Origin: an uncultured Gammaproteobacteria bacterium
GTDB lineage: Bacteria; Patescibacteriota; Microgenomatia; UBA8517
Reading direction: 5' to 3'
DNA length: 64,000 nucleotides
NCBI GenBank assembly: GCA_964357925.1
Contig: CAYHMW010000002.1
Location: 23,367 to 87,366 of the forward strand
The notes below the pieces were generated by a model that saw nothing but the letters and a program-made list of their open reading frames with translations, was not told where the DNA came from and made no database searches. Of this stretch, positions 1-35,974 are shown one piece after another. The position numbers and the translations under genes are program-made. How positions within the stretch are numbered: position 1 is the first letter of the stretch; the number at the start of each line of letters is the position of its first letter.

Positions 1-769
1 CGTTGTCATATTCTTCGCTATATTCTTGATCGTAAACATGATACTCGATAGGATATCCAAAAGCTGTAGTTTTTTCTCGTTCCATCAACTTTTGCCTAAT
101 AGTCAATAATAATTCAACAACTCGAAATTGCTTCAAAAACTCTTTTGCTCCACTCAAACGCCTCTCTTTGTGCATCTTTGGAGGGAGTGGCATAAGCTGG
201 TCTTGTTCGTCGACCTTGTAATATGGTTGATATGGATCGTTTTGCAAAGTTTGCGAGTTATTACGAACATCGTTTGCAGTCAAAAACATTTGTATTACCA
301 AGTCTGGCTTGTACTTCAACCCAAAATTTGTAAGGGAAACCAACTGCTGAGCCGTTCCAGTATTACCCTGACCAGTCGCAATCACCTCAACTTGCCTCGC
401 CGAAGAATCGCGAAGGCGGGCCTCCACTTGCCTAAAAAACCTTTTCTCCAGGGGCACTTGTGTATTCTCTACAAAAGAATCTCCTAAAAACAGTATTCTA
501 TAAGTCCCCTCTGGTTTTTCAAAAGCGTGTTCTACATCCGGCCAACCATGCGAGTTAACTTCAATCCAAGTAAAATACTCTTTGGTGTGTGGGACAAACC
601 AACCTTTTTGATTTGGAATCAATCTACTTCCCAGTACGGAGTCATCTTGCCAGACGATAGTTGTGCGCACCGGCTTCAACCCAAAATATTTGTTGTCTGT
701 CACGTAATGATAAAGTCTAAATAATAGCTCTAGTGAAAAAAAAGCAAAGACGACCCCAATAATTGTCAT
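1..769 (-). CDS. SGNH/GDSL-family hydrolase (esterase or O-acetyltransferase-like), partial with C-terminus off the window edge; N-terminal membrane anchor
   Basis: Hand translation of the minus strand from the ATG at 767-769 down to position 1 gives an open frame with no stop, so it is absent from the complete-ORF track. It has an N-terminal TM segment (MTIIGVVFAFFSLELLF). It carries block I YRILFLGDSFVE (GDS), a Gly block TGQGNTGT and block III FLTANDV (GxND-like). Confidence 0.6.
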   Translation of the reverse strand, partial: MTIIGVVFAFFSLELLFRLYHYVTDNKYFGLKPVRTTIVWQDDSVLGSRLIPNQKGWFVPHTKEYFTWIEVNSHGWPDVEHAFEKPEGTYRILFLGDSFVENTQVPLEKRFFRQVEARLRDSSARQVEVIATGQGNTGTAQQLVSLTNFGLKYKPDLVIQMFLTANDVRNNSQTLQNDPYQPYYKVDEQDQLMPLPPKMHKERRLSGAKEFLKQFRVVELLLTIRQKLMEREKTTAFGYPIEYHVYDQEYSEEYDN

Positions 770-788
770 GCAAAGCCAAACAATTACG

Positions 789-2186
789 TTATTTATCCAC
801 CTTTTTGTAGACGAAGAGTTTTGTTGTTGGGACTCTTGAGAAGATTTTCCGGTCTCCCGTAAATTCTCGTTCATCAACTAGATTATACCCAAGTAAACCC
901 GGCAATGTCAGTACGCCATTGTGTTCCAAAATGACCGATTCAGTATTAAACTCCAATGGTGCTTCACTCCCAAGATAGTTTACCAATCCGGGAGCATAAT
1001 ATTGAAATTGCCTATAAGTAAAAGTCGATACAACAGTAGTATCTTTTGGGTCAAAATTATTGAGAACATACTTAACTGGTGCAACAGTAGGTGGTAGGGT
1101 AATGTGCTGGAGATACGCATACCGTAACCCAGTCATAAAAACAGGAAATATCGTAAATACTAGAATTAATTTTACGTAAACACTTCTATCGGCGATTTTT
1201 CCAATCAATAATAAAAGTGGCACAGATAGCGGCAGTACATACCTTGGAATTTCTAAGTTGTAAAAAATAAAAAGAGGTACGGCGTAGGAAACTAACCAAA
1301 CAAATATAAATAAGTAGTCAAAGTCACTATAAATTTTTTTCCAGTTTCTAGGAATATAAAAGCAAATGATTACAAAAAACACAAAAATCCACTTCGTATA
1401 GCCTGTCTCCAGTAACCATTTTAAATCATGCAGCCTGCTCCAAAAAGTAATATCGTCAGCAAAAATTGAATCATGCCAGTAAACGTAATCAGAGTGCTCG
1501 CGATACAAAAATACAAATTGTGAGAGTCCTGTATCAATGACCGTTGGGACAAGCCAAACCATAACTCCAGCTAAAAAATAAACAGTCGTTTTAAGCAATT
1601 CAATCAATCGCTTCCTTTTGTAAAGGATGAGCGACAAGAGTGATACTACGATTGAGTATTCTGCAAAACGATAGCCTAGCGATAAGCCACCCAAAAAAGC
1701 ACACCCATAGAGATATGCTTTAGGTTTCGCTTGATTCACACATAAATAACACAAAGTAGCAATTAACAAAACAAAAAATAATCCGACTATGTAATTAAGT
1801 GCTACCTCGCTCAAAGCCCAAACAATTGGAAACGACATAAGTAATAGTGAAGTCCAGTATGCAGAGGATCTACTCATCATTCTTTGAGCCAGGTAAAAAT
1901 ATGCCAAAAACAATCCCGACCCTGCTACAACTGATAGTAAAGTTAAAGCAAAAACGTCGTTTTTTGCAAAAATATCAATTATCCTGCCGGTTGCAATATA
2001 AACTGGATAACCGGGAGGGTGTGGAGTATGGTTCGCAATTGAGTAATCGTCGAGTGCCAGGGCATACTGCACACTATCCCAATCTTCAAGCCAAGGAGAA
2101 TACATCGTTGCCCTTGAGATAAGCACAAATACAAAAGTAATATAGACGACTAGATTTCTCCGGAAGTTGTCAGTTATTGTCTCCAT
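789..2186 (-). CDS. polytopic membrane glycosyltransferase, GT-C fold (ArnT/PMT-like, GT39/GT83-type)
   Basis: The 465-aa protein is hydrophobic throughout, with more than 10 predicted TM helices. It has an acidic DD motif in the first extracytoplasmic loop (LALDDYS) and a PPGYP motif. It sits within a glycosyltransferase cluster. Confidence 0.5.
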   Translation of the reverse strand: METITDNFRRNLVVYITFVFVLISRATMYSPWLEDWDSVQYALALDDYSIANHTPHPPGYPVYIATGRIIDIFAKNDVFALTLLSVVAGSGLFLAYFYLAQRMMSRSSAYWTSLLLMSFPIVWALSEVALNYIVGLFFVLLIATLCYLCVNQAKPKAYLYGCAFLGGLSLGYRFAEYSIVVSLLSLILYKRKRLIELLKTTVYFLAGVMVWLVPTVIDTGLSQFVFLYREHSDYVYWHDSIFADDITFWSRLHDLKWLLETGYTKWIFVFFVIICFYIPRNWKKIYSDFDYLFIFVWLVSYAVPLFIFYNLEIPRYVLPLSVPLLLLIGKIADRSVYVKLILVFTIFPVFMTGLRYAYLQHITLPPTVAPVKYVLNNFDPKDTTVVSTFTYRQFQYYAPGLVNYLGSEAPLEFNTESVILEHNGVLTLPGLLGYNLVDEREFTGDRKIFSRVPTTKLFVYKKVDK

Positions 2187-4063
2187 TTTATCCTTGAAAG
2201 AAATAAATAAACCAACACAGAAATTAACGTAATTTTAGTAACTCTGCTTCCTAGTTTGTATCCGGATGGCTCATACACCAAAACAATACGATCAGTATTA
2301 TTGATCAAACCAATTGATCTGTGGTGGTCAGGCGTTTCCTGAACACTGAGTGCTTCTCCGACAGAATCATAAGCAGTCCACCCAGGGCTATAAGTGTCTC
2401 TTAATAAAACACTATCGCCAGAGGAAAGTTCACTGGTGTCAAAGATAATTCTATTGGGCGAATAATAGAGGATACGAACGTTAGCTCTGGGTTTAAAGTA
2501 TTTGTTTAGGTAAACGAAAAAATGGCCATCATCAAACACTAAATAAGCTCCATCAATGTCGCGGCGAGTCTCAAGTATTAAATACTTAACATTATTGACT
2601 CCAAGAAGTTCCAGGTTTGGTTTGAATTCAGTAGCTTTATCTGACCCAAGCGGGGGAATAGCAAGAGAATAATAGTCCCAAAAGAAGTTTGTATAACCAA
2701 CTATCGCGCTCATGTAATTACTCTGAGTCAAAGTGCTATAGCCCTCGACTAGCTCAATGTCATAAAAGATCGCATCCCTTTGAGATACACAACGTGCCAC
2801 ACAAAAGACCCTCATCTGCTCGGCATCCGAAGCCAGGTAGTTGAGAATTTGCGCTGAAACATAACTGTTCTTTTTAAAATCCCTAGCCGTATAAGTCCAC
2901 GACAAGACCAAACTTTCAACTACCAAGACTAGCGCAACCAGCTTAAAATATTTGATTTTCTCAGCGCCATATGCAGCCAAGACGATACCGAGAAGGGTTA
3001 CTACAACCCACATTCGACTTGCGACACGCATTAGTCTATACCAAGACATACTGACCAATACGTCCCTGGCAGGGGAGATATTGTTCAATGTAACTACAAG
3101 AACTACAACAAAGGCCAAGCAAACTAGTAGTCTGAGTTTCCTAGGTAATCTTAAAAGTCCTAAAAATGCCAGCAACGAAACTCCAGTGCCTAAGGTCAAC
3201 CATTTTTCAGTCTCAACCGATTGCAATGCGCCTGCGCCGCCCCACCACGGAACAAAAACAGCTTTAACAAAATCAAGCCCCCCGGACCATATTGGGTAAA
3301 CTTCAGGATTCTTAAGTAACAAAAATCGTGTGGTCTCAGGACTCCACAGTAATTGTGGGATCAACACAATTGCACTAAAACCAAATGTTAGTACTGAAGT
3401 CAAAAAGTAATAAAAAAAAGCTCGCTTCATAGTTTTTGCTTGAAACGCTACTAAAGTAAACAAACCCGCGCTGAAAAAGCCAATAACTACAAACGTGATG
3501 TTATGCAAAAGAAATACCGTTGCCATGAGCAGGGCAAGAACTAGGCTAGTAGTTAGTCTTGGCTTCCGCGCAACTTCCAGACTATAAAATAAGATCCATG
3601 GTAAGTACGCCCATGAAGTTATTAGTCCGAAATGTCCGGCTTCAAGATAAGCCGAGAGTCTGGGGGCAGTCACGTACAAAAGCCCAGCAAGAAGAGCAGA
3701 TCTGCTTTTAAGGCTTAACCCCTTTAAAACGAGCATATACATGCCGACGCCACCAACAACGATATGCAAAACTATCGAAGTTATGAACCCGGCACCAATT
3801 GGCAAAAATATAAAAATAGTATTTGGCAAATAAAAGAGCATAGCTTGTGGATCAGGTAAAAGAGGGGTTCCAGAAAGTATATTGCTATACCAGAGTGGAA
3901 GCTCGCCATGGTCCCCCAAACTATTTTTTGTATATTCAATAATTGGCCAGAAAAATTCTTGTAGATCGTTGCCGCGGTTCAATAAAAGCGAAGGGCTCAC
4001 CAAAAAAGGAAGGCACATTGCCAAGGTGCCTAGAACAATCAACAAATAATGCTTATATCTCAC
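2174..4063 (-). CDS. polytopic membrane protein, YfhO/GT-C-like, with a C-terminal extracytoplasmic beta-rich domain of about 190 aa
   Basis: The 629-aa protein has about 12 TM helices in its N-terminal 440 aa followed by a soluble C-terminal domain. It overlaps the upstream gene by 13 nt, which suggests an operon. Confidence 0.5.
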   Translation of the reverse strand: MRYKHYLLIVLGTLAMCLPFLVSPSLLLNRGNDLQEFFWPIIEYTKNSLGDHGELPLWYSNILSGTPLLPDPQAMLFYLPNTIFIFLPIGAGFITSIVLHIVVGGVGMYMLVLKGLSLKSRSALLAGLLYVTAPRLSAYLEAGHFGLITSWAYLPWILFYSLEVARKPRLTTSLVLALLMATVFLLHNITFVVIGFFSAGLFTLVAFQAKTMKRAFFYYFLTSVLTFGFSAIVLIPQLLWSPETTRFLLLKNPEVYPIWSGGLDFVKAVFVPWWGGAGALQSVETEKWLTLGTGVSLLAFLGLLRLPRKLRLLVCLAFVVVLVVTLNNISPARDVLVSMSWYRLMRVASRMWVVVTLLGIVLAAYGAEKIKYFKLVALVLVVESLVLSWTYTARDFKKNSYVSAQILNYLASDAEQMRVFCVARCVSQRDAIFYDIELVEGYSTLTQSNYMSAIVGYTNFFWDYYSLAIPPLGSDKATEFKPNLELLGVNNVKYLILETRRDIDGAYLVFDDGHFFVYLNKYFKPRANVRILYYSPNRIIFDTSELSSGDSVLLRDTYSPGWTAYDSVGEALSVQETPDHHRSIGLINNTDRIVLVYEPSGYKLGSRVTKITLISVLVYLFLSRIKWRQ

Positions 4064-4082
4064 AATATATTATAATAACCCA

Positions 4083-4251: not shown

Positions 4252-6730
4252 TCTGTTTCTCTTATTTTTCTTTATACTGCCATTAATTCTTGTTTTTAAG
4301 TCACTATTTCTTCCCGGTCCGCTTGCGTGGGGGGACGCACCACATTTTTATCCAAACGAACTTAAGGAGCTCTTGAACTTTCCATCTGCATGGACTGAAA
4401 GAGGACATCTCCTTGGGGGCGTCAATCAACTTGTTTGGTTGTCACCACTAATGTTTATATATGGTTTATTAGGAACTTTGTTCGGCAACGACCTAGTAAT
4501 CAGACTTATGTTTTACTTTCCGTCGCTTATTCTCTCCGCCACTGGAGCTAGACATCTCGCCAGACATTATAAATTATCAGCAAACGGACAGTTTTTTGCT
4601 TCCTTAGTCTATATCCTCAACACCTATTTCATTACATTAATAGATGGTGGACAAGCAGGACTCGCTCTGGCATACGGCATATTCCCGTGGACGATACTTC
4701 ATTTAATAAAATTACTAGATAATCCAAGAACCACAACTTTTTCAAAAGCATTACTATCTTTGTCGTTACTCACACTGGCAGATCCAAGAATAGCATTAAT
4801 AGCCGACCTTTTTATTTTCATTAGCTACATTAGGAGCCGCAACTTATTTCTGTTTTTTGTCTTAAATGCAATAAACGTTGCCCTTCACGCCTACTGGCTT
4901 GTTCCTTTCCTTAGAATTGTTGGCAGCGCACCTACAGCAGGCGGATCCTACTTGCAATTGACATCCGTCCTTAACGGACTAACGCTTTATCAACCTCACT
5001 GGCCTAAAAATATATTTGGCAAAATTACATACCCAGCAATTCCAGGAGCCCTTCTCTTGTTGCTGCTCACGACTTCATTGCTCACCGCACGAACACGCAA
5101 AACACGAACAATTGGTATCCTATTTTTGCTATCAACTCTGCTTGTTAATGGCGAAACACTCCCACTCGGTTATTTCTACAGCTGGCTTATGAACAACATC
5201 CCGGGATCTGCCGCTTTCCGAGATTCTACAAAGTTTTTCTTCCCACTGACGCTTTTTGCAGGGCTCTTGTTGGGTTCACTCGCGGAGCAAACTAAAAACA
5301 AACTTCTACCAGGAATAATATATATGGTTATCTTGGGCAGTATTGCTCCGGCATTATTAGGTCAAATGAACTTCGTTCTTTCACGAAGAAGTCCATCGCC
5401 AGATTTTGAAAAACTGAATACTTATTTATCCAATGAAACAGGCTTCGGAAGGACAGCTTGGGTTCCCGAACAGCCTCCACTTGCTACACAAACCATAAAT
5501 AAACCAGCAACTAATGCCCGGGAGCTTGTAAATCTACGCCCACTAGGAAGACTCAATGCAGGTACGTTTGATCGATTCAATTATTTCCACAATGGAAAAT
5601 TCCTCGATTTCTACAGACTGTTTGGTATTAAGCATTTAGTGCTAAGCGGCGATCCCAGGGCGATTCAATTAAACAAAGAAGAGGAAAAACATTGGGAAGA
5701 TCTTTCTTTAAGAATTGCAACAAGTGCTGGGTTAATAAAAGAGGACACTAACACAAGCATTGGAGTATTTAGAGTTGATGAAACACTCCCACATATTTAT
5801 GGAGTTGAAAACGTGATTGCAGTTGTAGGGAGCGACGATATTTATGAGTCAGTGAGTCCCATTGGTCAGCCATTTGTTTTTTTCGAAGATGGAAAGTTGA
5901 ATCCAAAAAATCTTGATAATTATGATCAAGATTCAATAAAAATTCTATTTAACAACAAATCAGAGTTGGATCTAACAATGAGTTTTCTTCAGGAATATTA
6001 TTACGGGTCGCCGGAAGCAAAGGAATCAGGTTGGGCAGAGCATTCCGACTATCTTCAATATAAATATGAACTCTTAGTAAAAGGTCTGAACTATAACGAC
6101 TTTGATTATGGCCGTGGCATCGCGTTTTCAACAATGGAAGGCGAGAAAATACGATTCGATTTCAACGTAGCAAAAGAAGGTGATTATATTTTCGCAACTC
6201 GCTCTCTGAACAATAATTCACTTGAGTGGAATGTTAGGGGGTTGAGTCTTGAGCGTGGGGTCCACACGGAAACAATAATAAGTAGTGGAAAACTGAGTTT
6301 ACTAAACGTAGTCGCCTTGATTCCAAAAGAAGAATTTATTGAAGCGGAAGCTAAAGCCAAATCACTAGTATCTAAGTTTGAAGTTATCGAAAAAATAGAC
6401 TTATCCGTCGTCCCTAAACAAATTCTTAAAGTAGACTTTTCAAACAAAAGCCCTGTCAAATACGAAATAGAATCATCAGTCGGAGGTCGTTGGCTAATTT
6501 TTTCTGATTCATACCACAAAAACTGGAAGCTCAGGACAAAAAACAACTCAATCGACTCTTTGCCAATTTACTCTACCATAAATGGTTTCTACCTTGGCGG
6601 TAGTCAAGAAGACGTGGAAATCGTCTTCGCCCCCCAGAAGTATTTCATGGAAGGCATATATGTTAGCCTTACTGTTCTTAGTATCCTTGTTATCTCGTTT
6701 GCCATAGCCTACTCTAAGAAAAAGAAGTGA
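4235..6730 (+). CDS. large membrane protein, YfhO/GT-C-like N-terminal TM domain (about 370 aa) plus extracytoplasmic domain of about 460 aa
   Basis: The 831-aa protein has multiple TM helices followed by a large soluble domain. It is the first gene of the long + strand glycan operon. Confidence 0.5.
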   Translation: MRKSHSLFLLFFFILPLILVFKSLFLPGPLAWGDAPHFYPNELKELLNFPSAWTERGHLLGGVNQLVWLSPLMFIYGLLGTLFGNDLVIRLMFYFPSLILSATGARHLARHYKLSANGQFFASLVYILNTYFITLIDGGQAGLALAYGIFPWTILHLIKLLDNPRTTTFSKALLSLSLLTLADPRIALIADLFIFISYIRSRNLFLFFVLNAINVALHAYWLVPFLRIVGSAPTAGGSYLQLTSVLNGLTLYQPHWPKNIFGKITYPAIPGALLLLLLTTSLLTARTRKTRTIGILFLLSTLLVNGETLPLGYFYSWLMNNIPGSAAFRDSTKFFFPLTLFAGLLLGSLAEQTKNKLLPGIIYMVILGSIAPALLGQMNFVLSRRSPSPDFEKLNTYLSNETGFGRTAWVPEQPPLATQTINKPATNARELVNLRPLGRLNAGTFDRFNYFHNGKFLDFYRLFGIKHLVLSGDPRAIQLNKEEEKHWEDLSLRIATSAGLIKEDTNTSIGVFRVDETLPHIYGVENVIAVVGSDDIYESVSPIGQPFVFFEDGKLNPKNLDNYDQDSIKILFNNKSELDLTMSFLQEYYYGSPEAKESGWAEHSDYLQYKYELLVKGLNYNDFDYGRGIAFSTMEGEKIRFDFNVAKEGDYIFATRSLNNNSLEWNVRGLSLERGVHTETIISSGKLSLLNVVALIPKEEFIEAEAKAKSLVSKFEVIEKIDLSVVPKQILKVDFSNKSPVKYEIESSVGGRWLIFSDSYHKNWKLRTKNNSIDSLPIYSTINGFYLGGSQEDVEIVFAPQKYFMEGIYVSLTVLSILVISFAIAYSKKKK

Positions 6731-8016
6731 ACAAATACATAAGCGACTTGAAAGATTTAGTTTTTTCAAAAACGGCCAAGGACGCCACAGTGGTATTTAT
6801 TGGAAATGCCACCTCGTCACTCCTGGCCATTGTATTTACAATATTTGCAGCACGCTCGCTGGGGCCTGAAAATTGGGGAATGGTCGCAGCCGTCACAAGC
6901 CTCGTTGCCATTCTTGTGGCTTTCGGAGAACTAGGTCTCGATGCCGGTCTTCTCAAGTTCGTCTCTAAATTGTGGAGAGAAAACAAATTCAAGGAGGCAA
7001 AAAGTATTTTTCAAACAGTATTCACAGTCCGACTGATGCTCGCAGCTACAATAATTGCAATTTTGTTTTTGGCTCCACAGGAAATATCAAAATTAGCTTT
7101 TAACTCAAAAGACACCTCGCTCGTATACTTTTCAGCCTTAGGTTTTCTTGCTGCTCTCATCTTTGATTATCAAATCGCCGCAACTCAATCTAAAGAACAC
7201 TGGATAGTTGCTGCCTTTCTGCTCACCTTAACAAACATAATTCGAATCCTCGGGTTGCTATTTTTAATCTGGACAGATTCTGTAAATTTAGCATCTGTAC
7301 TTAAAGTCTTCACAGGCAGCGGCTTCATATGTTTTCTTCTTTCTCTCTACTGGCATCAGACACCCTTGGGTTTTTCAAAAAACTGGCAAGAAATTCTTCG
7401 CCAGATAATACCGTTTTCAGGGTGGATGGGTCTCAATAAAATAGTAAGCGTCTTAAACGGGAGAATAGATGTTCTCTTGCTCTTGAGTCTCTCGAGCGCA
7501 TATAGCGCAGGAGTGTATGCTGCAGCGAACAGGCTGGCAATGGGTGTGCCAATCATAGTTGCCAGCTTCGCCACAGTTTTGGCACCAAAACTTGCAGGCT
7601 TCAATACAAAAGAAGAATTAGAAATATACTTCAAAAAAAGTCTAGGTCTAACACTCCTAATTTCCATCGGACTCTTATTCGGAGTCTTAGTCTCACCTTT
7701 CGTAATCAAGCTCTTCGGTCCAGAATACAAAGAGGCCGGCCCGATACTTCAACTACTTTTCATAAGCTATATTCCTTTTACACTCTCGACTCCAGCTGTT
7801 AATACTCTAATCTACTCATTCAAGCGACCACAAATCATTGCGATAATGACAATTATTCAATCGCCGCTTGTGATAGCGGCCAACTACTTTCTGATTCCCA
7901 GATTCGATATCTACGCCCCAGTAGTTATTATTGCGGCTACAAACACGATCTCTATGTTTGTCAGTTATTATTTTGTCTGGCGCTACTTATCAAAAAAAGA
8001 AGAAGGTCTTCAATGA
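6727..8016 (+). CDS. polysaccharide biosynthesis protein / oligosaccharide flippase (Wzx-like, MOP superfamily)
   Basis: The 429-aa protein has about 12-14 TM helices. Its N-terminal pattern (VVFIGNATSSLLAIVFTIFAARSLGPENWGMVAAVTSLV) is typical of PF01943/PF13440 flippases. Its start overlaps the upstream stop. Confidence 0.7.
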   Translation: MNKYISDLKDLVFSKTAKDATVVFIGNATSSLLAIVFTIFAARSLGPENWGMVAAVTSLVAILVAFGELGLDAGLLKFVSKLWRENKFKEAKSIFQTVFTVRLMLAATIIAILFLAPQEISKLAFNSKDTSLVYFSALGFLAALIFDYQIAATQSKEHWIVAAFLLTLTNIIRILGLLFLIWTDSVNLASVLKVFTGSGFICFLLSLYWHQTPLGFSKNWQEILRQIIPFSGWMGLNKIVSVLNGRIDVLLLLSLSSAYSAGVYAAANRLAMGVPIIVASFATVLAPKLAGFNTKEELEIYFKKSLGLTLLISIGLLFGVLVSPFVIKLFGPEYKEAGPILQLLFISYIPFTLSTPAVNTLIYSFKRPQIIAIMTIIQSPLVIAANYFLIPRFDIYAPVVIIAATNTISMFVSYYFVWRYLSKKEEGLQ

Positions 8017-8855: not shown

Positions 8856-9472
8856 AGATCAACTCCTAGAAGTTCTGACAAGTCGAGACGAAGTTGAGCT
8901 GCATCTCGGAATAGGAGCCCTTTAATCCCCAGTTTTTCACAAGCAACTAAGTTTTCCTCCCTGTCATCGACGAATATTGTCTCTCTTACAGTAGTTTTCA
9001 TATTTTGTATCGCTGTTAGGTAAATCCTAGGATCAGGTTTTGCTACCCCTACTGTGCATGAGCAATATACGCCATTGAATATATCTTTCAATCCGAACTT
9101 TCGCATCTTAATATCCACCCAATCCACGGCAGTATTAGTAATAACCCCAATCTTAAAGCCTTTCTCCCGAAGCTTAGCTGCGATAAGCAGGACATCTTTG
9201 TTCCCCCGAACTCCATCTTCGTAATACTTCTCGAGAGTCCCTCGGATTGGTTTTTTAGGTGCAAGCTCGTATACCTCGTCCCAAAAGGTGCTTGCAAGTT
9301 CAGCCCCGATAGAGAGTTTTGGCCAGTGTTTGTTGTATAGCTCATGAAGTTTTTCAGCAGTAAGCCCGGATTCCTCCACGACTTTCCTATATTCATCCTC
9401 CCACCGATCAGAGTCAGAGCCGATGACTCCTCCGAAATCAAAAATTATAGTTTTGTAATTACTCACGTCCAT
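8849..9472 (-). CDS. HAD-superfamily hydrolase (subfamily IA-like phosphatase/phosphomutase)
   Basis: Motif I IIFDFGGVI, motif III K, motif IV FVDDREENL. Confidence 0.8.
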   Translation of the reverse strand: MDVSNYKTIIFDFGGVIGSDSDRWEDEYRKVVEESGLTAEKLHELYNKHWPKLSIGAELASTFWDEVYELAPKKPIRGTLEKYYEDGVRGNKDVLLIAAKLREKGFKIGVITNTAVDWVDIKMRKFGLKDIFNGVYCSCTVGVAKPDPRIYLTAIQNMKTTVRETIFVDDREENLVACEKLGIKGLLFRDAAQLRLDLSELLGVDLQ

Positions 9473-9510
9473 GGCTTCAACCTCCTTACATATTAAAGTA
9501 AAATATAGTC

Positions 9511-16052: not shown

Positions 16053-16076
16053 AATTAATAATTCAAAAACAATGAT

Positions 16077-17845: not shown

Positions 17846-17853
17846 TAGTAGGA

Positions 17854-23319: not shown

Positions 23320-24188
23320 GCATACCAAAATTATCAATAATTATTCTTAGCTACAACACCAAAGATTTGCTGCTGAATTGTTTACGCTCGCTAGAAAAAG
23401 TAAAAAATGAAGTCATTTTTGAAATAATAGTAGTAGATAACGCTTCCACAGACGGAAGTCTCGAGGCAATTAAAAATTTGAAAATTGAAAATTTGAAAAT
23501 TCTTGGGAACGAAGTCAACCTCGGTTTTGCCCGGGGCAACAATACTGCTCGCACTATTGTCAGAGGTGAATACATCCTCTTCCTTAATTCGGATACAGAG
23601 GTACAACCAGAAACACTTAAAAAATCTATAAATTATTTATCTCAACACAAGGACACGGGGGTAGTGACTGTCCGAACACTTCTTCCGAGTGGCAAGCTTG
23701 ATAAAGACGTCCGACGTAGTTTCCCAACTCCCTTTATTGCGCTCACTCATTTCTCCGGTCTGGACCGCCTGTTTCCAAAGTCCAAAATGCTAGCGAGTTA
23801 TTGGTACGGTTATATCCCAGATACAAAATCTCACTACATTGACGTTGCTCAAGGAGCTTTTTTCATGACCAGAAAAAAACTACTGGATGAGGTTGACTGG
23901 TTCAGCGAAGAGTATTTCTTAGATGGCGAAGATATCGACCTCTGTTGGAAGATTAAACTGGCGGGAAAAAAGATATATTACTTTGCAGATGCCAGCATAC
24001 TTCACACTAAAAAGGCTTCCAAAAAAAGCAGAAAGAAAATAAAATTTGTCCACACAGGTGTCGACTCAATGGAAATTTTTTATAGAAAATTCATGTGGGA
24101 TAACTACCCTCTACCGATAAACCTCCTAGTTATTTCAGGAATAAAAGTGATAAAAATTGTCAGGACACTGAAACACTTAATTATATGA
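23316..24188 (+). CDS. glycosyltransferase family 2
   Basis: LSIIILSYNTKDLL...IVVDNASTDGS, NSDTE motif. Confidence 0.85.
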   Translation: MSIPKLSIIILSYNTKDLLLNCLRSLEKVKNEVIFEIIVVDNASTDGSLEAIKNLKIENLKILGNEVNLGFARGNNTARTIVRGEYILFLNSDTEVQPETLKKSINYLSQHKDTGVVTVRTLLPSGKLDKDVRRSFPTPFIALTHFSGLDRLFPKSKMLASYWYGYIPDTKSHYIDVAQGAFFMTRKKLLDEVDWFSEEYFLDGEDIDLCWKIKLAGKKIYYFADASILHTKKASKKSRKKIKFVHTGVDSMEIFYRKFMWDNYPLPINLLVISGIKVIKIVRTLKHLII

Positions 24189-25321
24189 AGATAGTTATCG
24201 ATGCCAGGTTTTATGGGCTGGAGAATGGAGGACTGGGCAGGTACCTCATCAATTTAATCCGTGAACTTTCAGTAATCGATAAGGAAAATAACTACACCCT
24301 ACTACTTCGCAAAAAATACCTAAATAACAACGAGCTTCCCAGGAATTGGCATAAGGTTCTTCTTGACCATCGTCACTATAGTGTGGGCGAGCAAATCTAC
24401 GTACCGAAAATGCTAAAAATTCTGAAGCCAGACTTAGTTCACTTTCCTCATTTCAATGTACCTTTTTTATATCGAGGCAAATTTGTTGTAACTATTCATG
24501 ACATCCTTATGCACAAAATGAAAGGCAAAGATGCTACAACGTTGCCTCCTTACAAATATGTGATCAAAAGGATTGGTTACAAAACTATTTTTAATAAAGC
24601 CATTAAAAAGTCAGTAAGAATAATTGTTCCAAGTAATGCCGTTAAAAACGACATAGTTAACTATTACAAAATAGATGAAAACAAAATATCAGTAACATAC
24701 GAAGGTTTTGACGCAAGTATCAAGTCGGAGAAAGGTACAAAGAAGAGTCTCAAGAAATTGTATGATCTAACCACCCCTTTTTTCCTATATGTTGGCAACG
24801 CATACCCACACAAAAATATAAAAAGGTTAATCGAAGCTACAGTATTTTTGAATGAAAATTCGGGGAGAAAAACTACTCTAGCAATCTCAACACCAAAAAA
24901 TGTTTTTGGCGACAGGCTATCACTGCTAGTTAAGGAACTTCGAGCTGAACAATATGTCAAGCTACTAGGCTTTGTCCCCGATCAAGATATCGCACTTCTC
25001 CACAAGGAATCTGCTGGTTTTGTTTACCCATCTTTAATAGAAGGTTTTGGCCTACAGGGTCTTGAAGCAATCAGCAATGGTACAATATTCATTGCATCGG
25101 ATATACCCGTGTTTAAAGAAGTTTATAGAGATAACGCAATTTACTTTAACCCTTTCGACTTCAGTTCAATTGAAAGTGCAATGAAGAGGGTATTGGAAAT
25201 GGATTCCTCAAATCGCATAGAGATGATCGCAAAATCTCAAGAGTTTATCAAACGCTACTCCTGGCGCAAAATGGCACAAGAGACACTAGGGGTGTACAAT
25301 GCGGCCGCCGCCGAAGAATGA
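24185..25321 (+). CDS. glycosyltransferase family 4
   Basis: EGFGLQGLEAISNGTIFIASDIPVFKEV signature. Confidence 0.85.
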   Translation: MKIVIDARFYGLENGGLGRYLINLIRELSVIDKENNYTLLLRKKYLNNNELPRNWHKVLLDHRHYSVGEQIYVPKMLKILKPDLVHFPHFNVPFLYRGKFVVTIHDILMHKMKGKDATTLPPYKYVIKRIGYKTIFNKAIKKSVRIIVPSNAVKNDIVNYYKIDENKISVTYEGFDASIKSEKGTKKSLKKLYDLTTPFFLYVGNAYPHKNIKRLIEATVFLNENSGRKTTLAISTPKNVFGDRLSLLVKELRAEQYVKLLGFVPDQDIALLHKESAGFVYPSLIEGFGLQGLEAISNGTIFIASDIPVFKEVYRDNAIYFNPFDFSSIESAMKRVLEMDSSNRIEMIAKSQEFIKRYSWRKMAQETLGVYNAAAAEE

Positions 25322-26394
25322 AAGTAGCTCTTGTTTACGATAGGGTAAATAAATGGGGCGGGGCTGAGAGAGTTTTGCTGGCACTGAACGAACTTTTCCC
25401 AGAAGCGCCCTTATACACTTCAGTTTACTCAAATGAATCTGCCGCATGGGCAAATGTTTTTCCTAAAATTCACACATCATTCATACAAAAAATTCCTTGG
25501 GCAAAGACAAATCACGAATACCTTCCCTGGCTCATGCCAAAAGTATTTGAATCTTTTGATTTTAGGCAGTACGACCTTGTCATATCAGTCACAAGTGAAT
25601 CTGCTAAAGGTATAATTACTCACCCAAACACAAAACATATCTGCTATTGCCTTACACCAACAAGATATTTATGGAGTGGCCACGAAGACTATTTCCCCAC
25701 TTCATTTAAACGAACTGCAGCACAACCACTTATTAGGTACTTAAGAAGTTGGGACCAAGTTGCCGCCCACCGTCCAGACACAATGATAGCTATTTCGACT
25801 GAGGTACAAAATCGAATAAAAAAATATTACAGCCGTGACGCTACAATTATTTTTCCTCCAACACCACTGGGCCACCCCGCATTCAATGCGGGATCTAAAA
25901 GCTCGAGATCATATTACTTGTTGGTTTCTCGTCTTGTCCCTTACAAAAAGGTAGATCTAGCAATCAACGCCTTCAACGCTCTCAATCAACCCTTAGTTAT
26001 CATTGGAACCGGCAAAGATGAAAGTAGACTCAAAAATATTGCAAACAAAAACATTAAATTTTTAAGTAAATTGACAGACAGGCAACTTGGCAATTACTAT
26101 ATGGGAGCCAAGGCGCTGATTTTTCCGCAAAACGAAGATTTTGGTTTAGTAACAGTCGAAGCTCAAAGCTTCGGAGTGCCAGTCATAGCGTTTCGAGGAG
26201 GCGGAGCACTCGATACAGTAATTGACGGTGATACTGGAGTTTTTTTTAACGAGCAAACAATTGATTCCTTGATAGACGCAATCAATAGATTTGAAAAAAT
26301 GAGTTTTGAGAGGAAACTGATTAAACAAAATGCAGAAAGATTTTCAAAGGAAATATTTAAAGAAAACTTTTTGAAAACAATTAATGAGCAATAA
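25318..26394 (+). CDS. glycosyltransferase family 4
   Basis: EDFGLVTVEAQSFGVPVIAFRGGGALDTV signature. Confidence 0.85.
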   Translation: MKVALVYDRVNKWGGAERVLLALNELFPEAPLYTSVYSNESAAWANVFPKIHTSFIQKIPWAKTNHEYLPWLMPKVFESFDFRQYDLVISVTSESAKGIITHPNTKHICYCLTPTRYLWSGHEDYFPTSFKRTAAQPLIRYLRSWDQVAAHRPDTMIAISTEVQNRIKKYYSRDATIIFPPTPLGHPAFNAGSKSSRSYYLLVSRLVPYKKVDLAINAFNALNQPLVIIGTGKDESRLKNIANKNIKFLSKLTDRQLGNYYMGAKALIFPQNEDFGLVTVEAQSFGVPVIAFRGGGALDTVIDGDTGVFFNEQTIDSLIDAINRFEKMSFERKLIKQNAERFSKEIFKENFLKTINEQ

Positions 26395-27502
26395 TTCAGA
26401 TTACAAAAACCACGTCTACGCTTTAATTTTGGCAGGAGGTGGAGGGACACGACTTTGGCCGAAATCAACAAACAAAACTCCAAAGCAATTTTTGAAACTC
26501 TTCAATAGTCAAACTCTCACGCAAATCACAGCAAGTAGATTTAGCGAAATTTTACCATGGGAAAAAATCTTCTGTGTCACTGTGTCCGAGGAATACAAAA
26601 AAGAAATCTTGAAAGAAGTTCCATCTTTCATCTCCAAAAATATTATTGTTGAGCCAGCAAGAAGGGAAACAGGACCAGCACATGGCATTGGAGCACTTCA
26701 CATCTATAAAAAAGATCCAGACGCAGTGATTATCACTGAAGCTGCCGATAGATTAGTCAACCCCGTTAAAAGCTATCTTAAGTGTTTGAACGCAGCTGCA
26801 AAAGTAGCATATGAGAAATCCATGCTAATCTCAATTGGTGTTGAGCCAAGATATCCACATACCGGCTTAGGGCACATTAAAAGAGGACAGAAATACGGCA
26901 TATTCGAACACCGAGCTTTTTATGCCATGGATAAATTTGTGGAAAAACCACCTCTTAAACTTGCGATTAAATATACTAACTCTGGAAATTATTATTGGAA
27001 CGCTGGACAGTTTGTTTGGCGAGCAGACAGTATCCTGAACGCTCTCAAAGAATTTGAACCAAACATTAGTGAGAACTTAGACAAAATATTTCCAGTTATT
27101 GATACTAATGCAGAAGAAGCGGTAACCGAAAAGGCATACAAAGCCATGCCAAAAATTTCTATTGACTATGCAGTCGCAGAACGGGCAAAAAATATGTTAG
27201 TACTTCCAGGGGATTTTTTCTGGACTGATATTGGTGACTGGAAGGAAGTTTGGAGCAACTTAAAGCAGGACGAGAGAGGCAACGTTATAATTTCAGGCGA
27301 TGGTAAGCCAAATATTGTTGCTCTCGAAACATCGGATTCCATAATCCATACAAATGGAAGGCTTATTGCACTTGTAGGCATTGAAAACCTTGTAGTAATA
27401 GACACGAAAGATATCTTATTGATATGCTCTAAGAGTAAAGCCCAAAAAGTGAAGGAAGTAGTAAATATTCTCAAAGAAGAAAAGCGCGAAAAATATTTGT
27501 GA
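26384..27502 (+). CDS. manC: mannose-1-phosphate guanylyltransferase (GDP-mannose pyrophosphorylase, ManC-type nucleotidyltransferase domain)
   Basis: N-terminal ALILAGGGGTRLWPKST...PKQF NTP-transferase motif. Its overall length matches the ManC N-domain, with no obvious C-terminal cupin. Confidence 0.8.
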   Translation: MSNNSDYKNHVYALILAGGGGTRLWPKSTNKTPKQFLKLFNSQTLTQITASRFSEILPWEKIFCVTVSEEYKKEILKEVPSFISKNIIVEPARRETGPAHGIGALHIYKKDPDAVIITEAADRLVNPVKSYLKCLNAAAKVAYEKSMLISIGVEPRYPHTGLGHIKRGQKYGIFEHRAFYAMDKFVEKPPLKLAIKYTNSGNYYWNAGQFVWRADSILNALKEFEPNISENLDKIFPVIDTNAEEAVTEKAYKAMPKISIDYAVAERAKNMLVLPGDFFWTDIGDWKEVWSNLKQDERGNVIISGDGKPNIVALETSDSIIHTNGRLIALVGIENLVVIDTKDILLICSKSKAQKVKEVVNILKEEKREKYL

Positions 27503-28161
27503 TACAATCACCTGCCCGGAAAATGAGTTACAACTTTATCAAAAGATTCATCGACGTCTTTGGGTCCATCTTCCTTCTGCTTTTTTTTTCTCCAATAATT
27601 CTAATCACCTCAATTGTCATTAAATTGACCTCCAAAGGTCCAATAATGGCAGATACTCCGAAACGTGTCGGCAAAGGTGGCAAGCTATTCAAGCATTATA
27701 AATTCAGAAGCATGGTTGTAAACGCTCACAAACTTCTTCGAACAGACCCTAAGTTTAAAAAGCTTTATAAGAAATACAAGGCAAGCAGCTATAAACTCCA
27801 CGATGACCCAAGGGTAACTCCAGCTGGAAAATTTATCAGAAAGCACTCGATCGACGAAATCCCGCAACTAGTCAATGTTTTAAAAGGGGAGATGAGCATT
27901 GTTGGTCCGAGGCCATATTATGGAGACGAATTAAAAGAGCAGCAAAAGAAATACCCACATACCCAAAAATTGGTCAAAGAAGTCCTTTCTGTCAGACCCG
28001 GAATCACAGGCTATTGGCAAGTAACAGGGAGAAGTGAAGTTAATTTTGATAAGAGAATTGAAATGGATGCATATTATGCAAGAAAAAAATCGATCATCTT
28101 GGATTTCCTTATACTTCTAAAAACCCCTTGGGCTATGGTCACTGGCCGTGGCGCAGTGTAG
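27499..28161 (+). CDS. polyprenyl-phosphate sugar-1-phosphate transferase (bacterial sugar transferase, WbaP/PglC/WcaJ catalytic-domain type), the initiating enzyme
   Basis: Single N-terminal TM helix. PF02397 motifs are present: KRFIDVFGS, KFRSM and DEIPQLVNVLKGEMSIVGPRP. Confidence 0.9.
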   Translation: MIQSPARKMSYNFIKRFIDVFGSIFLLLFFSPIILITSIVIKLTSKGPIMADTPKRVGKGGKLFKHYKFRSMVVNAHKLLRTDPKFKKLYKKYKASSYKLHDDPRVTPAGKFIRKHSIDEIPQLVNVLKGEMSIVGPRPYYGDELKEQQKKYPHTQKLVKEVLSVRPGITGYWQVTGRSEVNFDKRIEMDAYYARKKSIILDFLILLKTPWAMVTGRGAV

Positions 28162-28170
28162 AATATTTGT

Positions 28171-30246
28171 GTGGAAAACGACATTAACATCCCCCAGATT
28201 AAGCCAGTTCAATCCATTCTTGAACCACCGAAGTTAGAAGTTGTCAGTGACGCCGAAGCTGGATCTAATGTAAAAGAACAAGTAGAACCTCCTAAACAAA
28301 GTTTTTTTAAGCGAATTAAATTTCCCAGATTAGGGCTCCCTGGACTGGGAAGCTCGGGTGGTAGAACAAAGAAAATTTTAGTCGGTTCCCTGGGATCTCT
28401 CTTGCTTGTCGCACTTATTATTCTCGTTCTGGTAGTTTTGCCGGCAGTGGATGTTTACAAAAAAGGGAAAACACTTGAAGTTAGCGCCAGAGCTCTCAAA
28501 GATTCTGTTAACTCACAGGATATAAATGTAGTAAAAAATAAATTAAGTGACTTTAAAAAAGACTTCTTGAGTTTTCAAAAAAGCTATAAACGCCTCACTT
28601 GGACGAAGCCACTTCCAGTTATCGGCAATTACTACAAGGATGGTGAAGCTGGTCTCAAGGCTGGTGTATATGGAATTGAGGCAGGTGAGTTGACTCTCGA
28701 GACAGTAACTCCCTTCGCGGACATAATCGGCTTTGCAGGCCCCGATTCCCAACAATCAGAAAGTGGCGAGGACACGGCCAATGACAGAATTGATTTTCTA
28801 GTGCAATCTCTGGATGTCTTCATCCCTAAAATGGATGAATTAACGCAAAAGGTCTCCCTCGCACAGGCAGAGCTCGCAATCATCGACCCAAATCGCTATC
28901 CAGAGCACGTCAAAGGTAAGCCTGTCAGAAGCACACTTAAAAAATATCTAACATTAGCAGACGAAGGTGCTGAATTTGTTAAAAACGCAAAACCCCTAAT
29001 GGAAGCGACACCCTATCTAATTGGCCTCGACGACACCAGAACATACCTCCTTTTATTCCAAAACGACAAAGAACTTCGTCCCACAGGAGGCTTTCTGACT
29101 GCATATTCATTTGTCGAGGTGACGGGTGCCAAACTTAATCCAACAAGCAGTAATGATATCTATAATCTCGACGGTAATTACAAAGCAACCATTGACGCAC
29201 CAGAACCTTTCATTAAATTTGTCAAAGAGCCTTATAGACGCTTTCCACAACTAAGGCTCAGGGATATGAATTGGTCACCGGACTTCAGAGTTAGCATGGA
29301 GCAATTTCTTGAAGAGGCCGAAAGCGTTGGAGTGAAGGATATAGATGGGGTTATTGCGGTCGACACACAAGTAGTTGTAAATATACTGAAGGCAATAGGT
29401 CAAGTCGGTGTTTTTGGTTTTGGCAACTTCAATGCAGATACTGACCCAAGGTGCAATTGTCCACAAGTTGTCTACGAGCTCGAAAGTTTTGCCGATGTCG
29501 AAGGAGCAATAGTGTGGAGTGAAAACGAGCCTGGCAAAATTGTCTTCGCCCCTCCAAATTACGAAAATAGAAAGAAAATTGTAGGTCCACTTATGAATTC
29601 TGTCCTCGCCAACGCACTCGGTCAACCAAAGGATAAAATACCAGCCCTTTTTGAAGCAGCATGGAAAACAGTTACTGAAAAACATGTTCTACTTTATGTT
29701 TATGATGAAGAGGCACAAAGGGGGATTGAAGCTTTTGGAATTGGCGGGAGAATTGTCGATACCGACGGGGACTTTTTGCACGTCAATGATGCCAATTTAG
29801 CAGGCAGAAAATCTAATCTTTACGTGACACAAGAAGTGAGTCAGGACATTGAAATATCAAAGGACGGCAGTGTAGTTAAAACTCTAACACTAACATACAA
29901 AAATCCTGCACCCTATGATGGCTGGCTCAACTCAGTTCTTCCAAATTGGACAAGAGTTTATGTACCAAAAGGCTCAGAACTAATCGATAGCCAAGGTTTT
30001 GATCAAGCGGCCATAGTTGAAGAAGATCTTGGCAAAACCGTATTCGCAGGAAGTTTTAGTCTCCGACCAGAAGGAGTCCAAAAAATAACCCTAACCTACA
30101 AACTTCCATTTAAAGTTGAAGATAAATATAAGATTTTTATTCAAAAACAGCCAGGTACAGATACCCCTCTTCATACAATAAAAGTGGGTAAACAACTCGA
30201 GGAGCTCTTCCTGCGCACTGACAAATCCTTCACATTTCATCTATAA
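28171..30246 (+). CDS. membrane-anchored extracytoplasmic protein, DUF4012-like (ELRPTGGF motif)
   Basis: The 691-aa protein has an N-terminal TM helix (ILVGSLGSLLLVALIILVLVVL) and a large exported domain. It has the conserved-looking LLFQNDKELRPTGGFLTAY block. It is the last gene of the glycan operon. Confidence 0.55.
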   Translation: MENDINIPQIKPVQSILEPPKLEVVSDAEAGSNVKEQVEPPKQSFFKRIKFPRLGLPGLGSSGGRTKKILVGSLGSLLLVALIILVLVVLPAVDVYKKGKTLEVSARALKDSVNSQDINVVKNKLSDFKKDFLSFQKSYKRLTWTKPLPVIGNYYKDGEAGLKAGVYGIEAGELTLETVTPFADIIGFAGPDSQQSESGEDTANDRIDFLVQSLDVFIPKMDELTQKVSLAQAELAIIDPNRYPEHVKGKPVRSTLKKYLTLADEGAEFVKNAKPLMEATPYLIGLDDTRTYLLLFQNDKELRPTGGFLTAYSFVEVTGAKLNPTSSNDIYNLDGNYKATIDAPEPFIKFVKEPYRRFPQLRLRDMNWSPDFRVSMEQFLEEAESVGVKDIDGVIAVDTQVVVNILKAIGQVGVFGFGNFNADTDPRCNCPQVVYELESFADVEGAIVWSENEPGKIVFAPPNYENRKKIVGPLMNSVLANALGQPKDKIPALFEAAWKTVTEKHVLLYVYDEEAQRGIEAFGIGGRIVDTDGDFLHVNDANLAGRKSNLYVTQEVSQDIEISKDGSVVKTLTLTYKNPAPYDGWLNSVLPNWTRVYVPKGSELIDSQGFDQAAIVEEDLGKTVFAGSFSLRPEGVQKITLTYKLPFKVEDKYKIFIQKQPGTDTPLHTIKVGKQLEELFLRTDKSFTFHL

Positions 30247-35973: not shown

Positions 35974-35974
35974 T

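Follow-up and report, generated by a model that had tools for sequence, protein, structure and literature searches.

Does a large cluster of glycan-assembly genes in an uncultured bacterium represent an acquired island of the O-antigen or capsule type, or does it belong to the native envelope machinery of its lineage? The question is raised by a 64-kb stretch of contig CAYHMW010000002.1 (assembly GCA_964357925.1, positions 23,367 to 87,366), hereafter the window, to which all coordinates refer unless another locus is named. Its first 30 kb carry a ~30-kb, ~26-gene operon for building a complex cell-surface sugar structure. Based on sequence families and on predicted folds from metagenome-assembled genomes (MAGs), we think it rather probable that this is a vertically inherited, lineage-conserved operon of a groundwater Microgenomates bacterium (Patescibacteria, or candidate phyla radiation, CPR) that assembles one complex cell-envelope glycoconjugate. 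This glycoconjugate probably contains mannose, and we favour a secondary cell-wall or surface heteroglycan with mannose among its sugars. An earlier interpretation made from the letters alone, which we call the sequence-only reading, had also seen one coherent glycan-assembly system here, a view now supported by the gene families, their packing, and their conservation.

The map of open reading frames (ORFs) contains 25 complete ORFs between 789 and 30246, in line with the sequence-only reading of about 25 consecutive, mostly co-directional and overlapping genes over ~27-30 kb. On the left, two large genes (2174-4063 and 789-2186) lie on the minus strand and are followed by a third that exits the window at its left end (<1..769); the cluster extends past this end. 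From 4235, the plus strand encodes a large membrane protein (C3), a Wzx-type flippase, and a glycosyltransferase of family GT2 (GT2a), after which comes a single minus-strand gene of the HAD family. The 21 further genes, from 9511 to the end of recO at 30792, are all on the plus strand, neighbouring genes overlapping by up to 53 nt or standing up to 24 nt apart. Most junctions downstream of the HAD gene are 4-nt overlaps of the ATGA type, which argues for a translationally coupled operon. The last gene, recO (30247..30792, plus strand; 181 aa; RecO_N, E 7e-19 in Pfam), is not a glycan gene and abuts the preceding DUF4012 gene with zero gap. Scans with promoter and terminator consensus sequences gave no excess over the shuffled background and indicated no operon boundaries except for a 9-bp, 7-GC palindromic hairpin at 30801-30822, directly after the recO stop codon, which is the sole notable element in these scans.

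We then asked how widely this arrangement is kept. A search with the C3 family, in which each GTDB species was represented by a single genome, retrieved 80 loci. In 54 of them, 9 kb or more of sequence follows the C3 homologue downstream, and these constitute the informative set. The core order is kept in all 54, which come from Woesebacteria, Blackburnbacteria, Daviesbacteria, and their allies. The exact chain C3-Wzx-GT2a-MT-C4-GT4a-GT2b-C5, where MT is a methyltransferase, C4 and C5 are membrane proteins, and GT4a and GT2b are glycosyltransferases described below, was found in 25 loci. Another 22 have C3-Wzx-GT2a and, further on, GT4a, with C4 and C5 rearranged, and seven show minor variants. 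No part of the cluster is more constant than the C3-Wzx-GT2a triad, and the flippase gene comes after C3 in nearly all related loci. The proteins themselves are far apart across species, with median identities of 27% for Wzx, 32% for C3, 46% for GT2a (up to 63%), and 51% for GT2b; the last two are the best conserved of the eleven genes in the upstream half.

Collinearity goes well beyond the core. All 25 genes recur in assembly GCA_964583685.1, at 27-78% amino acid identity, with order and orientation unchanged except that the HAD gene is displaced by one position downstream. There, recO is again next to the cluster (41% identity), and the SGNH-like gene of the left end is present and followed by a carbamoyltransferase gene. 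The contig that encodes a Woesebacteria homologue of the Wzy_C-domain protein (see below) has 19 cluster genes, from GT2a to the DUF4012 gene, in collinear order at 40-73% identity; it lacks the HAD gene, and recO lies just downstream of the DUF4012 gene after one small ORF. A MAG labelled WWE3 repeats this order in its downstream genes, starting with the acetyltransferase. The recO gene is thus the conserved right-hand boundary of the cluster, and it occupies the same place in the related loci L084 and L085. The left periphery is variable, as judged from the related locus L002, where the cluster continues leftward with a NodU/CmcH-type carbamoyltransferase (1338-3047 of L002) and where an extra 787-aa GT-C protein of the YfhO family (5598-7961 of L002) is inserted between the orthologues of the membrane proteins C1 and C2y. 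The conservation of gene order in distant relatives argues for vertical inheritance and for purifying selection across a phylum-level assemblage, and suggests that the product is a core part of the Microgenomates cell envelope. Related complete chromosomes measure 0.82-1.08 Mb, so that the ~30-kb cluster takes up ~3% of a small genome, which argues for an important product.

All the informatively named homologues are assigned to Woesebacteria, Blackburnbacteria, Daviesbacteria, Amesbacteria, Candidatus Microgenomatus, the Microgenomates group, or the Patescibacteria group. The window also has a counterpart in groundwater: an ENA contig of 9.5 kb, recovered from the 0.1-um fraction at the Hainich well H41, is identical to it from the end of C1 into C4. 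Many of the GTDB representative MAGs that carry the cluster go under the title 'uncultured Gammaproteobacteria bacterium' or 'bacterium', and another under 'Woesearchaeota archaeon'. These titles are placeholders or wrong names, and we disregarded them because the same loci are collinear with those of named Microgenomates genomes.

The sequence-only reading had called the locus an island. A horizontally acquired, strain-variable island of the O-antigen or capsule type would match part of its content, as the combination of a priming transferase, a Wzx flippase, a Wzy_C protein, many glycosyltransferases, and an acetyltransferase resembles such loci. The composition of the cluster is nevertheless native: its GC content is 0.394 versus 0.403 in the adjacent housekeeping genes, its GC content at third codon positions is 0.368 versus 0.354, and the correlation of tetranucleotide frequencies between the cluster and the rest of the window (r = 0.979) compares with 0.966 in a control that opposes the first and second parts of that rest. 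Pfam and Rfam scans of the window revealed no integrase, transposase, or flanking tRNA; its sole tRNA gene, a tRNA-Val (CAC) at 59737-59812 on the plus strand, is 29 kb away and unrelated to the cluster boundary. Added to these observations are the full collinearity with divergent relatives, recO neighbor included, and the retention of the cluster in every informative locus. The island reading is contradicted by these data, and we give it hardly any credence.

Much of the interest of the cluster lies in its six large polytopic proteins, which the sequence-only reading had taken for GT-C glycosyltransferases rather than transporters. It had also considered so many in one locus unusual. This holds for O-antigen and capsule clusters, but there is a precedent elsewhere: several GT-C genes also cluster in the arabinogalactan and lipoarabinomannan (LAM) region of Mycobacteriales. 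Recent duplication does not explain the six proteins, whose pairwise BLAST E-values are 4e-8 or worse. A crude hydropathy scan gave 6-13 hydrophobic segments per protein, and the two for which we have structure models (C2y and C3) are helical bundles. In our analysis all six are GT-C glycosyltransferases, three by Pfam cut-offs (C1, C5, and C6), C4 through its orthologue family, and C2y and C3 by predicted fold.

C1 (789..2186, minus strand; 465 aa) is TMEM260-like, of the PMT_2 type, and matches PF11028 with E 1e-7 and 32.4 bits, above the Pfam cut-off of 24.2. It has ~9 hydrophobic segments and an EDWD motif at residues 34-37 after the first transmembrane (TM) segment, and the gene at the corresponding place in L002 encodes an orthologue with 41% identity. 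C5 (13518..14975, plus strand; 485 aa) matches PMT_2 in Pfam (E 2e-12, 47.9 bits), has DE at residues 29-30, and also gives a sub-threshold match (E 4e-9) to the NCBIfam mannosyltransferase MT1671. C6 (20630..22123, plus strand) matches PMT_2 (E 6e-17, 62.7 bits) and PMT (E 6.5e-6) in Pfam, with D47 and D55 in loop 1. Its likely start is the ATG at 20651 already chosen by the sequence-only reading, which agrees with the 11-nt overlap with the preceding gene in orthologues. C4 (10332..11675, plus strand; 447 aa) is PMT_2/GT87-like; its own PMT_2 match in Pfam reaches only E 0.006, and its assignment comes from its orthologues, among which 24 of 36 match PMT_2 and 5 of 36 match GT87, the one in L085 matching both. 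The C4 family also aligns with the YfhO-like family in hhalign (probability 80%, E 1.5e-5, 282 columns), and its E24 is invariant. Single-sequence searches of the PDB with C1, C4, C5, and C6 returned no match.

For C2y and C3, we collected and aligned ~100-120 homologues each and predicted the structures with AlphaFold2. The YfhO-like C2y (2174..4063, minus strand) is a 629-aa ORF that gene callers start at 4018, giving 614 aa. It has no Pfam match of its own, and its homologues carry PF09586 (YfhO), PF10131, PF20176, or PF11847. Its model (pLDDT 93.9) gave as best Foldseek hits in the PDB the enzymes AftD, STT3, PglB, AftA, and ArnT, with E-values from 3e-7 to 5e-4, and N32 and D33 in loop 1 are each kept by at least 90% of 49 aligned sequences. 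C3 (4235..6730, plus strand; 831 aa) also lacks a Pfam match. Its model (pLDDT 91.0) has a GT-C core with the TM segments at ~1-385, extracytoplasmic beta-sandwiches at ~400-800 that resemble carbohydrate-binding modules (CBM) of families 6 and 35, and a C-terminal TM helix at 801-830 that serves as membrane anchor. The fold-comparison values of C3 are highest with AftD (16.9, over 618 aligned residues) and STT3B (16.8), followed by ArnT (15.2) and Pmt4 (14.1), and the C-terminal beta-sandwiches score 9-10.7 with CBM35 and CBM6 modules. This likeness to AftD is one of fold, with sequence identity of 10-15% only. D34 of C3 is invariant in 47 sequences. The C3 family comprises 1874 clusters at 50% identity (E<=1e-30), and about one in twelve of its listed members has any precomputed Pfam match (PF10131). 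The cluster adds large new subfamilies to the GT-C superfamily.

Two of the six proteins have no Pfam match, and the nearest NCBIfam name for C3 is MmpA, a corynebacterial membrane protein described as a lipid-delivery protein, which could suggest that some of them are transporters or other non-enzymatic membrane proteins. Yet MmpA was itself related by its describers to the N-terminal domain of AftD (PMC8698533). Acidic residues occur in the first loop, as placed by predicted topology, in all six families. In the Foldseek searches with C2y and C3, the significant PDB hits were AftD, STT3, PglB, AglB, AftA, ArnT, and DPY19, and transporters appeared only at E>0.04. The transporter reading is therefore contradicted at the level of predicted folds, and we regard it as extremely improbable. 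The natural reading of the GT-C content is the one already proposed from the sequence, that is, extracytoplasmic elaboration of the glycan from lipid-linked donors, which we predict to be polyprenyl-phosphate sugars.

The other proteins that carry our interpretation would act in initiation, export, and donor supply. The priming enzyme (27499..28161, plus strand) is a phosphoglycosyl transferase (PGT), i.e. a small monotopic polyprenyl-phosphate hexose-1-phosphate transferase. Pfam (Bac_transf, E 5e-60) and NCBIfam (EPS_sugtrans, E 3e-73; WbaP C-terminal domain, E 7e-70) agree on this assignment, the latter placing it in the small monotopic WbaP-C-terminal type, and it is 73-78% identical to the orthologues in relatives. 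The Wzx-type flippase of the MOP family (6727..8016, plus strand; 429 aa; ~11 hydrophobic segments in the hydropathy scan) matches Polysacc_synt with E 8e-21 and 75 bits, well above the Pfam cut-off of 28.2, and Polysacc_synt_3 with E 4e-16. The ManC-like mannose-1-phosphate guanylyltransferase (26384..27502, plus strand) is the sole nucleotide-sugar gene in the locus and lacks the isomerase domain. It matches NTP_transferase (E 1e-29) and ManC_GMP_beta-helix (E 5e-20) in Pfam, and its NCBIfam match to GMP_PMI (E 3e-86, 290 bits) covers profile positions 2-352 of 467, the guanylyltransferase part only. Finally, the DUF4012 protein (28171..30246, plus strand; E 2e-20 in Pfam) has one TM helix at residues 77-95 and a large extracytoplasmic domain, and a single-sequence search found no relative in the PDB. 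Its gene follows that of the PGT in L084 and L085 as well. DUF4012 is among the families enriched in CPR and Gram-positive bacteria, together with many membrane families of unknown function in these lineages (PMC6744442).

A further component is the polytopic protein with a Wzy_C domain (19225..20661, plus strand), which passes the Pfam cut-off (E 2e-10, 41 bits versus 31.7). The likely start is M10, at 19252, which is nearly invariant among homologues. We detected 1854 homologues, the best 120 of which are 48-67% identical, with a mean column identity of 53%. The family profile matched no solved relative in the PDB, and hhalign comparisons with WaaL and WbbH of E. coli K-12 gave a probability of 0.1%, i.e. 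no detectable similarity. The Wzy_C domain is common to O-antigen ligases and O-oligosaccharyltransferases (O-OTases) as well as to polymerases. The sequence-only reading of a Wzy/O-antigen-ligase-like protein is hence sound for the domain, which leaves three candidate roles: polymerase, ligase, and O-OTase.

Taken together, these families suggest the following route. At the cytoplasmic face, the PGT would load a hexose-1-phosphate onto polyprenyl phosphate, and the six GT4 and four GT2 enzymes, up to ten Leloir glycosyltransferases in all, would lengthen the chain with GDP-mannose made by the ManC-like enzyme and with other nucleotide sugars. The chain would be tailored by the methyltransferase and by the hexapeptide acetyltransferase before the MOP/Wzx protein moves the lipid-linked glycan to the outer face. 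There, the Wzy_C protein may polymerise the glycan or pass it to an acceptor, and up to six GT-C enzymes may add residues from polyprenyl-phosphate sugars, the growing glycan being probably held by the CBM6/35-like modules of C3, as proposed for AftD. The conserved adjacency of the two genes suggests that the DUF4012 protein works with the PGT, and the SGNH-like protein of the left end might act on O-acyl groups outside the membrane.

Several observations weigh against this interpretation. Among the ORFs scanned in the window there is no Pfam family of Wzz/PCP chain-length regulators, no WaaL-type ligase or acceptor system, no LCP enzyme, no GtrA-family flippase, and no recognisable donor synthase of the GtrB/DPM1/Ppm1/ArnC type. 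No glycosyltransferase of the cluster reaches an NCBIfam equivalog cut-off, and hence no sugar or linkage can be assigned. Ten cytoplasmic glycosyltransferases exceed what an ordinary repeat unit would need, and a defined oligosaccharide accounts for them no less well than a polymer. Conservation of the Wzy_C protein is also far above that of Wzx and of typical Wzy polymerases. These last two points are about as compatible with the en-bloc transfer of a defined oligosaccharide, in protein O-glycosylation or ligation, as with polymerisation. The 'complete Wzx/Wzy-type pathway' of the sequence-only reading must accordingly be qualified: the PGT, the flippase, and the Wzy_C domain are there, but the window encodes no chain-length regulator and no ligase or LCP enzyme, the role of the Wzy_C protein is ambiguous, and the locus is not variable.

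How does the cluster compare with known systems? With the Wzx/Wzy pathways for O-antigen, capsule, and exopolysaccharide, such as those of Salmonella O-antigen, group 1 capsules, and pneumococcal capsular polysaccharide, it shares the Bac_transf PGT, the MOP flippase, the Wzy_C protein, the run of GT2 and GT4 enzymes, the O-acetyltransferase, and the nucleotide-sugar gene. Wzx/Wzy loci typically vary between related strains or species, although this is not strictly defining, whereas the cluster is conserved across a phylum-level group with a Wzy_C protein ~50% identical, and has ten Leloir and six GT-C glycosyltransferases. Unlike these pathways, it comes without Wzz/PCP, a WaaL-type acceptor system, or an LCP ligase, and the Pfam scan of the ORFs in the window found no Wza/Wzc family either. 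The arabinogalactan and LAM systems of Mycobacteriales (EmbA/B/C, AftA-D, PimE, Mpt; AftD structures 6wby and 6wbx) offer a closer logic. In both cases a lineage-defining envelope glycan is, or would be, started by cytoplasmic glycosyltransferases on a polyprenyl carrier and then extended outside by several GT-C enzymes, among them GT87/PMT_2 members and an AftD-like GT-C core with carbohydrate-binding modules, and GDP-mannose is supplied. The similarity is one of fold and superfamily only, given the low identity mentioned above. Moreover, the cluster has no DprE/UbiA-type donor genes and no Ppm1, the window has no genes for the synthesis of decaprenyl-phosphate arabinose, the flippase is Wzx-like rather than an ABC transporter, C3 has a single C-terminal TM helix compared with five in AftD, and the host is an ultra-small CPR bacterium without a mycolate layer. 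By analogy, we favour a product logic like that of mycobacterial arabinogalactan and LAM assembly, rather than that of a strain-variable O-antigen or capsule.

Two other types of systems show partial likeness. Three-component systems (GtrA/GtrB/GtrC; CsbB/GtcA/YfhO) also have GT2 genes adjoining GT-C genes, and C2y falls in the YfhO-like family, but the cluster has no GtrA-family protein and neither GT2a nor GT2b is specifically GtrB/DPM1/ArnC-like. In the experimentally linked capsular/exopolysaccharide (CPS/EPS) cluster of Bifidobacterium longum 105-A, the priming transferase gene is directly followed by a DUF4012 gene as it is here (PMC5412050); that cluster continues with wzz, a tyrosine kinase, and strain-specific glycosyltransferases and has no GT-C enzymes. 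All parts of the cluster come from known superfamilies, and what seems new is the combination of PGT/Wzx/Wzy_C with ten Leloir enzymes, four to six GT-C enzymes (one of them AftD-like with CBM modules), and DUF4012, in an order fixed across Microgenomates. We found no description of the cluster in the literature, the nearest being a protein-family survey that noted DUF4012 and membrane families (PMC6744442).

One alternative is a general protein O-glycosylation system. The lipid-linked oligosaccharide made by the ten Leloir enzymes and flipped by Wzx would be moved as a block by the Wzy_C protein, acting as an O-OTase of the PglL/WsaB type, onto S-layer proteins, pilins, or sortase substrates, and the PMT_2/TMEM260-like GT-C enzymes would O-mannosylate proteins. 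O-glycosylation loci (PglL, PilO; slg clusters with WsaB/WsaP; PMT O-mannosylation) do share with the cluster a PGT, a flippase, a Wzy_C protein, a methyltransferase, many glycosyltransferases, and PMT_2/TMEM260-like GT-C proteins. A Wzy_C domain above the Pfam cut-off is as expected of an O-OTase as of a ligase, the group-wide ~50% identity of this protein is unlike that of hypervariable Wzy polymerases, and a glycan that is defined and non-repeating would account for ten cytoplasmic glycosyltransferases together with a methyltransferase. The best NCBIfam match of the flippase, at full length, is an 'O-glycosylation flippase', with an E-value of 5.5e-17 that is far below the cut-off, and three of the GT-C proteins match protein-mannosyltransferase families. 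Set against this, we identified no target protein, sequon, or OTase signature, and neither a solved ligase or OTase nor E. coli WaaL showed any detectable similarity to the Wzy_C family. Among GT-C families, moreover, PMT_2 is a broad one that also takes in glycosyltransferases for lipids and polysaccharides. Six GT-C enzymes, one of them with CBM, and a DUF4012 partner also depart from the known O-glycosylation loci; in particular, the AftD-like C3 with its CBM modules and the PGT-DUF4012 pair of CPS/EPS clusters indicate a polysaccharide substrate. We see protein O-glycosylation as a serious but rather unlikely explanation.

A second alternative is a membrane-anchored lipoglycan of the lipomannan/LAM type. 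A lipid primer would be mannosylated inside by the GT4 enzymes, flipped, and extended outside by GT-C mannosyltransferases using polyprenyl-phosphate mannose. This is consistent with the ManC-like gene as the only nucleotide-sugar gene of the locus, with the GT87/PMT_2 and AftD-like GT-C proteins, with the weak match of C5 to mycobacterial MT1671, and with the resemblance, below cut-off, of the GT4 enzymes to the MSMEG_0565, MshA, and glycolipid synthase families. However, a Bac_transf PGT and a Wzy_C protein are foreign to lipomannan and LAM synthesis, no PimA/PimB or Ppm1 equivalog was found, and every one of the resemblances is at the superfamily level. We thus consider a lipoglycan improbable, and return to the secondary cell-wall or surface heteroglycan as the preferred product.

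A more ambitious version of the heteroglycan can be formulated. The product might be a lineage-defining, possibly essential glycopolymer of Microgenomates, made by a hybrid route in which PGT, Wzx, and Wzy_C are joined by four to six GT-C enzymes, including the AftD-like one with CBM modules, and by DUF4012, and in which the C3-Wzx-GT2a triad works as a three-component module with a MOP flippase replacing GtrA. We put this forward tentatively and would not bet on it as a whole, and the exchange of GtrA for a MOP flippase is only an idea. If true, the product would play for these ultra-small cells the part that arabinogalactan plays for mycobacteria, and would be a candidate surface for host attachment. 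To our knowledge, no member of Microgenomates has been cultured. The surface of CPR/Patescibacteria cells is largely unknown, and the operon provides a concrete candidate, open to testing, for the main surface glycan of Woesebacteria, Blackburnbacteria, Daviesbacteria, and their allies, as well as a natural example of Wzx/Wzy_C-type and multi-GT-C-type logic combined.

The remaining genes of the cluster include those for the Leloir enzymes and the tailoring functions. Pfam confirmed all six GT4 and four GT2/GT-A enzymes of the sequence-only reading, and every one of its gene-family assignments that could be tested held in the hidden Markov model (HMM) searches; besides the PGT, the Wzx-like flippase, the ManC-like pyrophosphorylase, and the DUF4012-like exported protein discussed above, these include the methyltransferase, acetyltransferase, and HAD hydrolase described below. 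The GT4 enzymes, all on the plus strand, are GT4a (11657..12688; Glycos_transf_1, E 1e-26), GT4b (14976..16052; Glycos_transf_1, E 9e-21, and Glyco_transf_4, E 4e-13), GT4c (16077..17204; Glycos_transf_1, E 3e-38), GT4d (22120..23319; Glyco_trans_1_4, E 3e-22, and TIGR03087 of NCBIfam at E 2e-45, below cut-off), GT4e (24185..25321; Glycos_transf_1, E 2e-22), and GT4f (25318..26394; Glycos_transf_1, E 1e-28). The GT2 enzymes, on the same strand, all match Glycos_transf_2. GT2a (8013..8855; E 1e-10) is a soluble protein of 280 aa that otherwise matches only GmaR. GT2c (18351..19277; E 3e-28) and GT2d (23316..24188; E 3e-25) are paralogues with 35% identity. GT2b (12685..13521; E 2.5e-30) has two C-terminal hydrophobic helices (220-238 and 250-268), which had raised the idea of a GtrB-like donor synthase. 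Comparison of its family profile with the PDB does not support this: the best match is the A2 domain of chondroitin synthase (E 9e-37, residues 3-184), and the alignments with DPMS, GtrB, and ArnC are confined to the N-terminal Rossmann part, roughly the first 105-123 residues.

Among the tailoring enzymes, the methyltransferase (9511..10335, plus strand) is predicted to use S-adenosylmethionine (Methyltransf_23, E 2e-28 in Pfam) and has an N-terminal zinc ribbon of the form CxxC..CxxC (CKLCGS..CAKCEL). The acetyltransferase (17204..17845, plus strand) is a left-handed beta-helix (hexapeptide) O-acetyltransferase (Hexapep, E 1e-15 in Pfam), WcaF-like by an NCBIfam match below cut-off (E 6.5e-28). 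The HAD-IA hydrolase (8849..9472, minus strand; HAD_2, E 3e-20 in Pfam) is accessory: its gene is present in only three of the 80 related loci, at a different position there, which in L002 is after the methyltransferase.

The SGNH esterase of the sequence-only reading could be traced to the truncated gene at the left end (<1..769, minus strand), the 5' part of a gene for an SGNH/GDSL-like esterase or acyltransferase whose N-terminus forms a membrane anchor. The motifs agree, with LFLGDSFVEN as block I and a TANDV block, and block V would fall beyond the window; the HMM match is weak and below cut-off (Lipase_GDSL_2, E 5e-4 in Pfam). In L002, the orthologue at the same position has 360 aa and 55% identity, with a TGNDV block, EGHWNETG, no clear DxxH, and no Pfam match. 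The SGNH/GDSL assignment is thus tentative. A 119-aa ORF with a TTG start at 128-487 on the plus strand, antisense to this truncated gene and without family match, is probably not a gene. We had also considered as the esterase a conserved 166-aa membrane protein (17854..18354, plus strand), absent from the earlier reading, and rejected it, since it matches no Pfam or NCBIfam family. It has N- and C-terminal TM segments, and in L084, L085, and L086 orthologues with 51-52% identity likewise lie between the acetyltransferase and GT2c.

The rest of the window is ordinary chromosome, with recO, a class II aminoacyl-tRNA synthetase, the dcw cluster from mraZ to ftsZ, the isoleucyl-tRNA synthetase (IleRS), parB, and a signal peptidase. 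The dcw cluster (34372-50006, plus strand) comprises mraZ, rsmH, ftsI, two Mur ligase genes, ddl, mraY, ftsW, murG, ftsA, and ftsZ, and has unusual inserts: a nucleotidyltransferase resembling the N-terminal part of GlmU without its acetyltransferase part (37721-38473), and two genes without family match (38470-39453, 327 aa; 40582-41355, 257 aa). Only the middle and C-terminal domains were seen in the Mur ligases (373 and 376 aa), and a 216-aa ORF without Pfam match (46859-47509) stands in the position of ftsQ. A second SEDS protein (FtsW/RodA family, E 2.5e-74) is encoded at 54037-55092 on the plus strand, overlapping the upstream IleRS gene (51221-54040), and a 567-aa protein (57640-59343, minus strand) has a partial match to the IMPDH/GMP-reductase domain, restricted to residues 309-485, and no assignment for the other residues. 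At the right end of the window (61979-63717, plus strand), a methyltransferase gene (61979-62743) overlaps a GT4 gene (62701-63717), and the two could form a second small glycan-modifying module.

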